DNA from: Vulcanimicrobiota bacterium
GTDB taxonomy: Bacteria > Vulcanimicrobiota > Vulcanimicrobiia > Vulcanimicrobiales > Vulcanimicrobiaceae
DNA: 10,977 bases
Direction: 5' to 3'
NCBI GenBank assembly: GCA_003133025.1
Contig: PKZK01000031.1
Coordinates: 1 to 10,977, forward strand
The position numbers and the translations under genes are program-made. Every line of letters starts with the position of its first letter. Position 1 is the stretch's first letter. The notes beneath the pieces were generated by a model. The model worked only from the letters and a program-made list of their open reading frames with translations. It ran no database searches and had not been told where the DNA came from. Below, one piece after another: positions 3,112-7,298 of this stretch.

Positions 3112-5331
3112 ATGCCGATCTTGAGAACGTTTGCCGCCGTCGCTGCCGCGCTCGCGGTCGCCTGGCCCGCGCCTCCGCCCGCAGCGCCCGTCCGCCCGGT
3201 GACCAACGATTACTTCGGGAAAAAACTGGTCGACCCGTACCAGTACTTCGAGCATCTGAAATCGCCGGAGGTGCAGACGTACTTCCGCGAGCAGGCGAAC
3301 TACACCAACGCCGTTCTGTCGAAATTAGGGCCGGGCCGCGAGACGTTGCGGCGCGACATCGCCCGTTTGGCCGATGCCGGTGCGAGCGTCAACGTGGTGG
3401 CCAGCGTCGCCGGCACGATCTTCTACGTCGAGCGCCCCCCAAGCGCAAACGACGCGCGGCTCATGCTGCGCGGCGCCGACGGCAAGCCGCGTCTGTTGCT
3501 CGATCCCGACGCGTTCGGCAAAGCGACGGGTTCGAAGGCGCATCTCTCGATCTCGGGCGTGCTGCCCTCGCCCGACGGCCGGTACGTTGCCGTGGGCCTC
3601 GTGCCCGGCGGCGCGGAAACCGAGACGCACACGCGCATCCTCGATACTGCGACGGCGACGGTCTTGCCCGAGGATTTCCCGCGCACGTGGCAAGGCGCGA
3701 CGGCGTGGTCGGCCGACGGCAAGACGCTATTCTACAACCAGCTTCCGTTGCTCCAGCCCGGCGAGACGGAGAACGATCGAGAACTCCGTTCGCTCGTGTT
3801 TCGGCACACGTTGGGCGGCACGGGCGCCGATGTCGCGGTGTTCGGCATCGGTGTCGATCCGAACGTGCCGTTCGTGCCGACCGACTTTCCCGCCGTAACG
3901 ATTTCGCCCGCGGCACCGTACGCGTTCGGCGTGATCGCGCACGGCGTGCAGAACGAGCAGACGATTTACGTCGCTCCGGCTGCCGCAGTCGTGGCCGGCG
4001 GGCAGATTCCGTGGCGCAAGGTCGCCGATGTGGACGACGACGTCGTTTCCTTCGACGTCAAGGGCTCGACGCTCTACTTGCTTTCGCACAAGGGCGCTTC
4101 ACGCTATGCAGTGCTCGCGCTCGATCTCGAACAGAGCGGCGCGACCGCGGCCAATGCTGCCGTTGCCGTCCCGCATAGCGAAGTCGTGATCCAGCAGATT
4201 TCCGTTGCATCCGACGGACTCTACGTGCGCGGCATTCTCGGCGGCTTGGCAAGTCTGCGGAAGTTGCCGTTTGCGAGCCACGGGCCACCGGGCGCCGTCA
4301 CCTCGATCGCATTACCCTTCGCCGGAACGCTGCAGGCGTTCGTCACCGATCCGTTAGCTTCGGGCGCGGTCTTCGATCTGGTTTCCTGGACGAAACCGTC
4401 GCTGATTTACGCGCTCGCGGCCAACGGCGAGATCGCCAACACCGGCCTTCGCAAAGCGCCCGACATCGACACCTCGCGCTATGCGTCCATCGAGGTGAAG
4501 GCGCGCAGTGCCGACGGCACGCTCGTGCCCGTCTCGATCGTGATGCGCCGCGGCACCAAGCTCGACGGCAGCAATCCGGCCTATCTCGAAGCGTACGGTG
4601 CGTACGGGTTCGACATCGATCCATACTTTCTCGGCGCGAGTTTTGCGTGGCTCGATCAAGGCGGCATCTGGGCCGTCGCGCACGTTCGCGGCGGCGGTGA
4701 GTTCGGCGAAGCTTGGCACCAAGCCGGCAAGGGTCCGACCAAACAGCACACGATCGACGACGCGATCGCGGCCGCGCGCTACCTCATCGCCAACAAGTAC
4801 ACCACCTCCGCGCACCTCGCGATCGAGGGCACGAGCGCCGGCGGCATCATGGTCGGCGGCGCGATCACCCAGCACCCCGAACTGTTCGCCGGCGCGCTCG
4901 ACGTGGTGGGTTTGACCGACGAACTGCGCACCGAGGTCGCCGACCCCAACGGCGCCGCCAACGTGCCCGAGTTCGGCTCCTCGAAAACGCCCGACGGCTT
5001 CAAATCCGTCTACGCGATGGATGCGTACCAGCACATCGTCAACGGACGCAACTATCCGGCGGTCATGGCCGTCACCGGGATCAACGATCCCCGCGTCGCG
5101 CCCTGGCAGCCGGCGAAGTTCGTCGCGCGCCTGCAGGCAGCGTCGGCCTCGGGCCGGCCCGTCCTGTTACGCGTCGATTACGATGCGGGCCACGGGCTGC
5201 TCGCAGCGTCGCGCGCGCAAGAGGTCGCGCTCCTGACCGACGAGTTCAGCTTCTTGCTCTGGCAATGCGACAGCCCGCTCTTCGCAGGGATCCCCACGCA
5301 CATCGTGCCGGGCAAGTCCGGTGCGCGTTGA
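3112..5331 (+). CDS. Prolyl oligopeptidase family serine peptidase (S9A), likely secreted
   Basis: N-terminal signal-peptide-like sequence (MPILRTFAAVAAALAVAW), DPYQYFE N-terminal motif, beta-propeller region, YGAYG, HVRGGGEFGEAWH, catalytic Ser in GTSAGG, Asp in NDPRV and His in AGHG. ATG 3112 preferred over TTG 3103. Confidence 0.92.
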   Translation: MPILRTFAAVAAALAVAWPAPPPAAPVRPVTNDYFGKKLVDPYQYFEHLKSPEVQTYFREQANYTNAVLSKLGPGRETLRRDIARLADAGASVNVVASVAGTIFYVERPPSANDARLMLRGADGKPRLLLDPDAFGKATGSKAHLSISGVLPSPDGRYVAVGLVPGGAETETHTRILDTATATVLPEDFPRTWQGATAWSADGKTLFYNQLPLLQPGETENDRELRSLVFRHTLGGTGADVAVFGIGVDPNVPFVPTDFPAVTISPAAPYAFGVIAHGVQNEQTIYVAPAAAVVAGGQIPWRKVADVDDDVVSFDVKGSTLYLLSHKGASRYAVLALDLEQSGATAANAAVAVPHSEVVIQQISVASDGLYVRGILGGLASLRKLPFASHGPPGAVTSIALPFAGTLQAFVTDPLASGAVFDLVSWTKPSLIYALAANGEIANTGLRKAPDIDTSRYASIEVKARSADGTLVPVSIVMRRGTKLDGSNPAYLEAYGAYGFDIDPYFLGASFAWLDQGGIWAVAHVRGGGEFGEAWHQAGKGPTKQHTIDDAIAAARYLIANKYTTSAHLAIEGTSAGGIMVGGAITQHPELFAGALDVVGLTDELRTEVADPNGAANVPEFGSSKTPDGFKSVYAMDAYQHIVNGRNYPAVMAVTGINDPRVAPWQPAKFVARLQAASASGRPVLLRVDYDAGHGLLAASRAQEVALLTDEFSFLLWQCDSPLFAGIPTHIVPGKSGAR

Positions 5332-5333
5332 AC

Positions 5334-5363
5334 TTGACAGGCCTCACCCGACGGTGCTATGGT
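5334..5363 (+). promoter_or_regulatory. Sigma70-type promoter: -35 TTGACA (5334-5339), 18-nt spacer, extended -10 TGcTATGGT (5355-5363)
   Basis: Perfect consensus -35 in a very GC-rich context, TG extension and TANNNT hexamer. It lies immediately upstream of the leader ORF. Confidence 0.75.
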
Positions 5364-5371
5364 GCGCGCAG

Positions 5372-5440
5372 ATGTCGCTTCACGCCGCCGCCGCCTGGTA
5401 TTGGTACTTTACTCCGCATGAATCCATGCCGGTGAGGTAG
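5372..5440 (+). CDS. Attenuator leader peptide MSLHAAAAWYWYFTPHESMPVR (22 aa) with a Trp/Tyr/Phe codon cluster
   Basis: Hand translation: ATG TCG CTT CAC GCC GCC GCC GCC TGG TAT TGG TAC TTT ACT CCG CAT GAA TCC ATG CCG GTG AGG TAG. Five consecutive aromatic codons at 5396-5410 lie directly upstream of the first enzyme of aromatic amino acid synthesis. Confidence 0.85.
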   Translation: MSLHAAAAWYWYFTPHESMPVR

Positions 5441-5491
5441 ACGCGCGCGCGAATCCACGACTCGCAAGTTCGCAGAAGCCACCCTCACCGG
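5429..5491 (+). promoter_or_regulatory. Antiterminator helix (2:3): CCGGTGAGG 5429-5437 pairs with CCTCACCGG 5483-5491
   Basis: Perfect 9-bp reverse complement. The 3' arm covers the upper stem and loop of the terminator, so the two structures are mutually exclusive. Confidence 0.8.
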
Positions 5492-5511
5492 GGTGGTTTC
5501 TTCGTTTTCTT
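5474..5511 (+). terminator. Intrinsic terminator of the attenuator (3:4 helix)
   Basis: AGAAGCCACCCT (5474-5485) / loop CACC / GGGGTGGTTTCT (5490-5501) forms 12 bp including 2 G-U pairs, followed by the pyrimidine/U-rich tract TCGTTTTCTT. It lies upstream of the aroF RBS (GAGGA 5536-5540). Confidence 0.82.
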
Positions 5512-5544
5512 CCCCTTCGTACCAACCGTCCGCACGAGGATCAC

Positions 5545-6381
5545 ATGTCGACTCCGTCCATGCTCGCCCGAGGCCACCACAGCACGAACCGAACCGTCAC
5601 CGCCGGCTCCGCACGCTTCGGTGGCGGCGGCTTTACGCTCGTCGGCGGGCCATGCTCGATCGAGGACGAGGTCCAGATGGAGGCCGTCGCGAGCGCGGTC
5701 TCGGCGGCGGGCGGCGCGATGCTCCGCGGCGGCGCGTACAAACCACGCACCTCGCCGTACGATTTCCAGGGGCTGGGGGACGCCGCGCTGCCGCTGATCG
5801 CGGCGGCAGCGCGGCGTCATGGGTTACCGACGGTCGTCGAGGCGCTCTCGGAAACGCAGGTGCCGTTGGTCGCAAGCCGCGTCGACATGATCCAAATCGG
5901 CGCGCGCAACATGCAGAACGTGCCCTTGCTGCGCGCCGCTGCGAAGACGGGACTGCCGATCTTGCTCAAGCGCGGCCCGGCCGCGTCGCTCGACGAGCTG
6001 CTCGGCGCGGCCGAATACGTGTTGCTCGAAGGTAACGAGAACGTCGTGCTGTGCGAGCGCGGCATCCGCGGCTTCGATACGAACACGCGTAACGTGTGCG
6101 ACTTGGGCGGCGCGCTGCGTCTCAAGGAACTGACGCATTTGCCCGTGATCCTCGACCCCTCGCACGCGACCGGCCGCCGTTCGCTGGTCGAACCACTCGT
6201 GCTGGCGGCAGCCGCGGCCGGTCTCGACGGTGCGATCGTCGAGGTGCATCCGGATCCCGATCGCTCCAAGAGCGATGCCGCGCAGGCGATCGATCCCGCG
6301 ACGTTCGCGCGCATCGCCGCTCGCGTCCGCGCCGTGCGTGCGGCGCTCGCCGATGAGGAGGTCTACGCCGTAGCCGGCTGA
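5545..6381 (+). CDS. aroF: 3-deoxy-7-phosphoheptulonate (DAHP) synthase, type I-beta, catalytic barrel only
   Basis: Motifs GPCSIE, RGGAYKPRTSPYDFQGLG (KPRTS marks DAHP rather than KDO8P synthase, which has KANRS), QIGARNMQN, LLKRG, CERGIR, DPSHATG and EVHPDP..SD. RBS GAGGA at 5536-5540. Confidence 0.93.
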   Translation: MSTPSMLARGHHSTNRTVTAGSARFGGGGFTLVGGPCSIEDEVQMEAVASAVSAAGGAMLRGGAYKPRTSPYDFQGLGDAALPLIAAAARRHGLPTVVEALSETQVPLVASRVDMIQIGARNMQNVPLLRAAAKTGLPILLKRGPAASLDELLGAAEYVLLEGNENVVLCERGIRGFDTNTRNVCDLGGALRLKELTHLPVILDPSHATGRRSLVEPLVLAAAAAGLDGAIVEVHPDPDRSKSDAAQAIDPATFARIAARVRAVRAALADEEVYAVAG

Positions 6382-7298
6382 GCCGCGTCGAGATAGGTCA
6401 GCCAGACGCCGTCGAACTTGGCGTCGCCGCCGCGCACTGCGCGCGTGTAGCGCTCGCGCAAACGCGTCGTGATCGGGCGGTCGTCGGAATAGAGCCGGTC
6501 GTCGACGCTGAGAATCGGAATCACTTCGGCGGCCGTGCCGGTGAAGAAGGCTTCGTCGGCGCCGAGCAGCGCGTCGAGTGAGATCGGACCGATCTCGATC
6601 GGGATGCCCTCGTCGCCGGCGATCTGCAGCACCGAGTCGCGCGTGATGCCGTAGAGTACGTCGGCCGACGCGTCGTTCGTGCGCAACGTGCCGCGTTGCA
6701 CGATGAAGATGTTCTCGCCCGAACCCTCGGCCACGTCGCCGCGCTCGTTGAGCAGAATCGCTTCGTCGAAGCCGCGCCCGATCGCGTCGTGCAGCGCGAG
6801 CACCGAGTTCGTATAGTGCCCGCCGGCCTTCACCGTGGACGGCAGCGCGCGCGACGAGAACTTCTGCACGGGCGAGATCGTCGCCCGAAAACCCGGCGCG
6901 TCGCCCGCGAGGGGCGGGAACGGCAGCGCAACGACCATCACGCGCGTGGAGCAGCGAAAGCGCGGCTGCAGGGCCACGGTCTCGTCGCCGAAATAGGCCA
7001 GCGGCCGCAGATAGGCTTCGGCGAGTCCGCTCGCGCGCAACGTTTCGAGGCAGGCGGCGTGCAGTTGCTCCAGACTGTAGTCGACCTTCATGCCGTAGTG
7101 CGCGGCGCCGTTCAGAAAGCGGCGCAGATGATCGTCGAGCCGGAAGACGGCGACGCCGTGCGGCGTCGCGTACGCCCGGATGCCCTCGAAGATCGAGGTG
7201 CCGTAATGCAAGCCGTGGCTCAGCGGCGCGGCCTGCGCGTCCGCCGCCGAAACGATGCGTCCGTCGAGCCAAAATGCCCGCTGCGGCGCTGCGTCCAC
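6363..7298 (-). CDS. ilvE: Branched-chain amino acid aminotransferase (PLP fold type IV)
   Basis: GLHYGTSIFEGIRAY, VFRLDDHLRRF, PLP lysine in KAGGHY, EGSGENIF, GITR and FFTGTAAEV. GTG start with AGGAG 7 nt upstream. Confidence 0.93.
   Translation of the reverse strand: MDAAPQRAFWLDGRIVSAADAQAAPLSHGLHYGTSIFEGIRAYATPHGVAVFRLDDHLRRFLNGAAHYGMKVDYSLEQLHAACLETLRASGLAEAYLRPLAYFGDETVALQPRFRCSTRVMVVALPFPPLAGDAPGFRATISPVQKFSSRALPSTVKAGGHYTNSVLALHDAIGRGFDEAILLNERGDVAEGSGENIFIVQRGTLRTNDASADVLYGITRDSVLQIAGDEGIPIEIGPISLDALLGADEAFFTGTAAEVIPILSVDDRLYSDDRPITTRLRERYTRAVRGGDAKFDGVWLTYLDAAQPATA

Follow-up and report, generated by a model that had tools for sequence, protein, structure and literature searches.

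The trpL and pheL attenuators of Escherichia coli follow a four-segment logic in which the leader RNA pairs as 1:2, 2:3 or 3:4. The leader considered here, which lies in a window of 10,977 nucleotides from a Vulcanimicrobiota genome, resembles these systems (Rfam families Trp_leader and Phe_leader) in its frame of cognate codons, its 1:2, 2:3 and 3:4 alternatives and its intrinsic terminator, and differs from them in being probably leaderless, in carrying codons for three amino acids and in preceding the first common enzyme of the pathway, DAHP synthase.

A closer parallel has been described in Corynebacterium glutamicum, where the Phe-Tyr-Phe leader aroR precedes aroF (PMC4046766, PMC11802643, in their accessible portions). 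In the part of PMC11802643 available, ribosome stalling raises read-through and the response is to Phe, not Tyr, while the accessible text of PMC7356990 terms control by aroR translational. The Corynebacterium system shares with the window the general layout of a mixed aromatic-codon leader peptide before a DAHP synthase gene, with Phe-Tyr-Phe in aroR as against Trp-Tyr-Trp-Tyr-Phe in the window. The Vulcanimicrobiota leaders also differ in always containing Trp, with Tyr or Phe in about half, in that the controlled enzyme is a catalytic-only second copy, and in having an intrinsic terminator well upstream of the Shine-Dalgarno site of the gene, in contrast to the translational control named in that source. 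In mycobacteria, leaderless polycysteine short ORFs act as cysteine sensors (bioRxiv 10.1101/834739); as presented in the accessible part of that report, they share with our case the use of leaderless short frames as amino-acid sensors at several loci per genome, and differ in that each senses a single amino acid and acts on the ribosome-binding site downstream, whereas our leaders would act through a terminator and cover several groups of amino acids. A caution comes from Streptomyces, where changing the codons of a similar-looking ilvB leader brought no response (PMC1262725). A literature search whose coverage stopped short of subscription journals returned no paper on attenuation in this phylum and, by title or abstract start, no biosynthetic attenuator with Met or Pro codons; further leader genes relevant to novelty may be listed in the supplements to PMC4833913.

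Judged from its sequence and from folding models, the element in the window is very probably a ribosome-mediated transcription attenuator of the classical kind, working like aroR-aroF, and is likely to turn DAHP synthase on when the supply of charged Trp, Tyr or Phe tRNA is low. The leader region is flanked by a prolyl-oligopeptidase-like gene, which ends at 5331, and by the DAHP synthase gene; its features are collected in Table 1. Promoter spacing predicts a transcription start near 5370–5372. Since the leader ATG sits directly behind the promoter and no Shine-Dalgarno site is present before it, translation of the frame is probably leaderless. Rfam covariance models of leader, T-box and riboswitch families gave no match over 5370–5545 at E values up to 5, and an Rfam scan of the window together with five other stretches of the same genome returned nothing relevant. 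Parts of the stretch occur in three metatranscriptome runs, and contigs from two of them span the terminator (5407–5574 and 5438–5574, depth 3.5); such contigs give neither RNA ends nor strand and may be DNA, so they are neutral on termination.

Table 1. Features of the leader region and of one related leader; positions are those of the window unless a locus is named.
Feature	Position	Strand	Basis or remark
-35 hexamer TTGACA	5334–5339	+	part of the sole promoter-like site in 4800–6000 (0.1 expected)
Extended -10 hexamer TATGGT	5358–5363	+	same single promoter-like site
Leader reading frame, 22 codons, TAG at 5438	5372–5440	+	ATG 8 nt past the -10 box
Putative sensing codons 9–13, Trp-Tyr-Trp-Tyr-Phe	5396–5410	+	read in the leader frame
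Protector hairpin 1:2, dominant register (5405–5413/5431–5439 and 5416–5420/5425–5429)	5405–5439	+	folding ensembles
Segment 2, 5' arm of the antiterminator	5429–5437	+	pairing, covariation, shuffles
CG-repeat box after the leader stop	5442–5451	+	conserved alignment columns
Inner helix enclosed by 2:3	5449–5473	+	pairing; sequence varies between relatives
Predicted intrinsic terminator hairpin 3:4 (5474–5501) and interrupted U-rich tail	5474–5511	+	sequence prediction; 73/74 homologues
Shine-Dalgarno-like GAGGA of the DAHP synthase gene	5536–5540	+	read from sequence; outside the terminator
DAHP synthase, 278 aa, catalytic part only	5545–6381	+	above TIGR01361 and PRK08673 cut-offs
Met-rich leader, own genome	L186:3250–3420	-	also L192–L195, L197, L198, L206, L212, L213, L218

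Helices 2:3 and 3:4 exceed what chance would give. The original prediction of a perfect 9-bp helix 2:3 (5429–5437 with 5483–5491) holds, with all nine pairs Watson-Crick and a duplex energy of −17.0 kcal/mol, as does the enclosed helix 5449–5454/5468–5473 (six pairs, one of them G-U). Helix 3:4 (5474–5485 with 5490–5501) forms the 12 pairs expected of it, two of them G-U, at −19.7 kcal/mol, and the tail (5497–5511) is U-rich as described, though interrupted by C and G. The stretch 5483–5491 serves both the terminator and the 3' arm of the antiterminator. For 54 other hairpins in the genome that resemble terminators, perfect pairing with an upstream segment reached 3–7 bp at best; the leader, whose terminator the U-tract filter of that scan missed, reached 9 bp when scored separately. 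When segment 2 was shuffled (5421–5440), the modelled switch was kept in 0/150 sequences; the leader fold as a whole is only moderately stabler than its shuffles (z of −2.1, with 9/200 equally good).

The protector helix required more revision. The Trp-Tyr-Trp codons proposed to lie within helix 1:2 are indeed there, in the cluster Trp-Tyr-Trp-Tyr-Phe, and the proposed pairing of 5392–5404 with 5424–5434 can form (11 pairs with two U bulges and two G-U pairs, −11.2 kcal/mol as a duplex); as the main protector we reject it, since it is a minor fold with a probability of 0.00–0.04 at all transcript lengths tested. The dominant register, 5405–5420 with 5425–5439, has a probability of 0.5–0.87 in nascent-transcript ensembles of six lengths, and constrained energies agree, with −19.6 kcal/mol for the proposed register and −23.4 kcal/mol for the dominant one. 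Modelling also suggests that the CG-repeat box pairs with early leader codons and so adds an outer stem to the protector.

Constrained folding with ribosome footprints places the switch of the window on the aromatic codons. With a 12-nt mask from the A-site, the modelled terminator probability is 1.00 through codon 8, falls to 0.98, 0.59, 0.26, 0.00 and 0.00 on codons 9–13, is 0.12 on codon 14 and returns to 1.00 on later codons; a 15-nt mask moves this profile one codon upstream. The proposal that a ribosome stalled at 5396–5410 antiterminates is thus borne out in the model for codons 11–14, while a stall at the first Trp codon is insufficient at equilibrium (terminator probability of 0.98 with the 12-nt footprint and 0.59 with 15 nt). 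The two predicted OFF states behave as proposed, with a modelled terminator probability of 1.00 both for the untranslated leader and with a ribosome at the TAG.

These results are consistent with the following mechanism. Transcription would start at the ATG or 1–2 nt upstream of it, and a ribosome would load on the leaderless end. With charged aromatic tRNAs plentiful, the ribosome would reach the TAG and cover segment 2, and the terminator would release an RNA of about 140 nt. A stall on codons 10–13 would instead break the protector hairpin and leave segment 2 free to pair with 5483–5491, so that the terminator could not close and polymerase would enter the DAHP synthase gene. If no translation took place, protector and terminator would both form, which would make OFF the default state.

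To assess conservation, we collected orthologues, which occur in 77 of 348 family genomes at E 1e-90 or better, and fetched 74 orthologous loci, leaving out the own genome and two flagged unpublished. (The genome tallies 77/348 and, below, 90/151 include genomes flagged as unpublished, whose loci stand outside all counts, alignments and models.) With the window included, 74 of 75 orthologous loci have a short frame whose aromatic cluster contains Trp; the remaining locus ends at a contig edge and retains the 3' half of the leader. All 74 homologues have a -35 box of TTGAC or TTGCC 36–41 nt before the leader ATG, measured from the start of the box, the distance is 36–39 nt in 73 of them and 41 nt in the other (range searched 33–42). 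This fixed spacing, together with an SD-like word before only 1/74 leader ATGs, makes leaderless translation probable. The first Trp is codon 8–12 in 74/74 homologues and codon 9 in 41 of them. Trp, Tyr and Phe make up 328 of 666 residues around the first Trp and 44 of 900 elsewhere in the leader peptides, a comparison that is partly circular as the counted stretch is centred on Trp. Outside the cluster the peptides vary widely, and synonymous codons are both in use (TAT 45, TAC 39, TTT 35, TTC 29).

A covariation count with shuffled controls covered 50 of the 74 loci, excluding a long-peptide subtype and one genus of near-copies, and helix 2:3 covaries across these 50 relatives. It is paired in 90.4% of cells, with five of nine pairs changed on both sides, while slid registers pair in only 27–60%. 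Double-sided changes number 16 cells as compared to 2.2 in shuffles (0/500 shuffles as high), 12 of the 16 lying in one pair, with the ninth pair broken in 30/50 sequences and the kin non-independent. The terminator was found in 73/74 homologues; its count is impaired because 17 of the 50 rows are out of register by one column. Also present is a protector 1:2 that sequesters segment 2 in a register that varies among homologues: segment 2 pairs with the Trp-codon stretch itself in 34/73 and just downstream of it in 39/73. By a strict Watson-Crick count, 28/73 homologues have 4–5 bp only and resemble ordinary terminators.

At equilibrium the terminator probability drops below 0.5 in only 20/73 homologues with a 12-nt footprint and 23/73 with 15 nt, so in most of them 2:3 would have to be favoured kinetically. 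In modelled transcripts ended after segment 3, 2:3 forms in 73/73 homologues with the ribosome on the aromatic codons and in 0/73 with the ribosome at the stop. The same model also forms 2:3 with ribosomes on early codons (mean of about 0.7, and about 1.0 in the window), which means that the upstream limit of the switch depends on the model; without a ribosome, 2:3 forms in 37/73 homologues.

It is possible, though we consider it decidedly the less probable case, that the attenuator in practice senses only tryptophan and that Tyr and Phe codons are kept because they are U-rich, with UAC/UAU-UGG stretches pairing with segment 2. Tyr is present in only 40 of 73 clusters and, judged on the enzyme tree, was gained or lost about seven times, so that a constant Trp (74/74) is accompanied by a labile set of other codons. 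The pairing of segment 2 with the Trp-codon stretch in 34/73 leaders points the same way, both Tyr codons can pair with G, and the Tyr codon of Corynebacterium aroR is unresponsive to Tyr (PMC11802643). Against this, the strongest modelled antitermination in the window falls at Tyr12 and Phe13 and not at Trp9, some leaders have one Trp with three to five Tyr or Phe codons, and some leaders of prephenate dehydratase-DAHP synthase fusions have Phe/Tyr runs and no Trp.

It seems improbable that the signal is not tRNA charging at all and that the nascent peptide stalls on a free ligand, as in TnaC, or that general translation speed is sensed. The folds ended at segment 3 would permit antitermination from any early stall, and a C-terminal Pro-Val-Arg or similar end recurs in many homologues; that end, however, is segment 2 itself read in three frames (the stop occurs in all three relative to segment 2, 44/15/15), and the remaining peptide is not conserved. 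Unlike the TnaC type, the leader has no conserved arrest peptide and ends in a predicted intrinsic terminator, whereas tna relies on Rho (PMC1262725), and codon runs change with the pathway of the downstream gene across related leaders. Even less credible, to the point of being very unlikely, is that the frame goes untranslated and the element is a small RNA or a leaky, constitutive terminator whose pairings are incidental: GC-rich RNA does pair easily, and the modest z of the whole leader would suit such an element, but the ATG position is fixed and the aromatic cluster stays at codons 8–13 in 74 loci, while 2:3 covaries and codons vary synonymously among homologous loci. We therefore retain ribosome-mediated attenuation by aromatic codons as the preferred reading.

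The DAHP synthase of the window matches PRK08673 from position 71 only, so the first 70 or so positions are missing, and its closest named relatives are Vulcanimicrobiota/Eremiobacterota records. The missing N-terminal part is presumably the allosteric domain, as in type I-beta enzymes. Leader-controlled DAHP synthases measure 269–298 aa in 72/73 cases, and the own genome encodes a second DAHP synthase elsewhere, of 347 aa, that matches PRK08673 from position 1. Given an enzyme that lacks the N-terminal regulatory part and a second, longer enzyme, the attenuator would serve to boost the shikimate pathway under starvation. Scanned with a sequence model of the leader, the own genome gave one strong site and 83 other DAHP synthase loci (14 paralogue and 69 distant) gave no match; in a 151-genome sample of the phylum the strong matches of the model are confined to the family, and of 13 weak phylum-wide matches inspected, five are leaders, one is unclear and seven are not leaders.

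The gene behind the leader mostly stands alone. A division into Trp-only leaders heading trp operons and mixed leaders heading lone genes failed on the neighbourhoods: trpE/trpG lie upstream of the leader's promoter, flagellar or unrelated genes lie behind, and trpE/trpG directly follow the enzyme only in locus L129. In a second clade (loci L131–L184) the attenuated gene usually lies between trpE/trpG upstream and flgD-flgE-motAB downstream. The trpE of the own genome (L190:786–834) starts about 47 nt after the preceding gene, which we take to be ribosomal-protein-L17-like, leaving no room for a leader, and that trp operon therefore seems to be without attenuation; Trp leaders do precede trpE in some relatives (L258, L352, L358, L361). 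Within the window, a branched-chain aminotransferase gene (6363–7298) converges on the DAHP synthase gene from the opposite strand with a 19-nt end overlap, and stands closely behind tgt without a leader.

The leader is not alone of its kind. A plain pattern search for the shared frame gave mostly chance matches, many of them in controls. A scan of the own genome for a promoter, a close ATG, a short frame and a terminator left four of 86 candidates, namely the aromatic leader, a Leu/Ile and a Met-rich leader (upstream of leuA and of a cystathionine synthase/lyase gene, respectively), and one before a gene we assume to be Ro60/TROVE-like. In the last of these (L187:2400–2900, minus strand), a promoter, short frame and strong terminator lie upstream of that gene; the unit is possibly Y-RNA-like and had no convincing Rfam match. 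Leaderless Leu/Ile leaders with terminators precede leuA at 11/16 loci (own genome L188:3230–3410, minus strand; L222–L230, L232), Met-rich ones precede one cystathionine synthase/lyase paralogue at 11/30, and Pro leaders precede proC at 11/29 (L272–L277, L283, L292, L295, L296, L301), with a twelfth proC locus sharing the 3' half. Under equilibrium folding the Met leader of the own genome did not switch, nor did about half of the 11 Met leaders or six of the eight Pro leaders folded, and one of the two Pro leaders that did switch was folded from a wrong internal start.

A model built from aromatic leaders only also matched a Trp leader (trpE), a Met/Cys leader (sulfonate-binding protein), a branched-chain leader (ilvE) and Pro leaders (proC), at E values of 2e-6 to 8e-4 per genome, and the Pro leaders align with the aromatic ones over segment 2, the CG box and the terminator. 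A second model matched 90/151 family genomes; a terminator accompanies 47 of its 51 new matches, and in 43 of the 51 a short frame is coupled to a promoter. The agreement of codon run and gene class was judged by inspection, with 31 downstream proteins scanned. On this basis, leaders with Cys/Met runs stand before genes for PAPS reductase, sulfite reductase, sulfonate-type binding proteins, a Cys/Met PLP enzyme and homoserine dehydrogenase, and leaders with aromatic runs before genes for DAHP synthase and for prephenate dehydratase-DAHP synthase fusions. A leader with a Trp pair stands before trpS, and branched-chain runs are found before the genes of a TPP enzyme and of a threonine-dehydratase-like enzyme. 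The leader of one MFS gene has no clear codon run. Fusions with their own Phe/Tyr(/Trp) leaders occur at L337, L344, L351, L353, L365 and L383. Leaders with three consecutive Tyr codons precede an unnamed protein of 248–274 aa (L348, L359, L362, L363, L366, L375, L378, L384); one of three such proteins scanned matched the CADD family weakly (TIGR04305, E 7e-4), two scanned gave no Pfam match, and no solved structure matched, while the codons suggest a role tied to tyrosine.

Common descent of these leader frames is likely, with convergence on a CCGG core as the alternative. We lean, by a little over even chances, towards the broader reading that Vulcanimicrobiota copied one leaderless attenuator RNA frame (a CCGG antiterminator core, the CG box after the stop and a terminator with a complementary loop) before many amino-acid genes and retuned it through codons 8–13 only, in which case leaders would predict gene function and the switch in the window would replace the missing allosteric control of its enzyme. 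Retuning would then have placed Trp/Tyr/Phe codons before DAHP synthase, Trp codons before trpE and trpS, Pro codons before proC, Cys/Met codons before sulfur genes and Ile/Leu/Val codons before ilvE and ilvB.

Taken alone, the element is of modest news value, since its mechanism is a textbook one and Corynebacterium already provides a leader of a DAHP synthase gene. What it contributes is a well-conserved, probably leaderless version with codons for three amino acids, from a little-studied soil phylum, with the putative attenuator gating an enzyme copy that has no regulatory domain. The natural series of codon sets in a similar frame (Trp-only, Trp/Tyr, Trp/Tyr/Phe, Pro, Cys/Met and branched-chain) makes a change of specificity directly testable, and, if the copied-frame reading is true, leader codons could annotate unnamed genes, for example through a tyrosine link for the 250-aa CADD-like protein.
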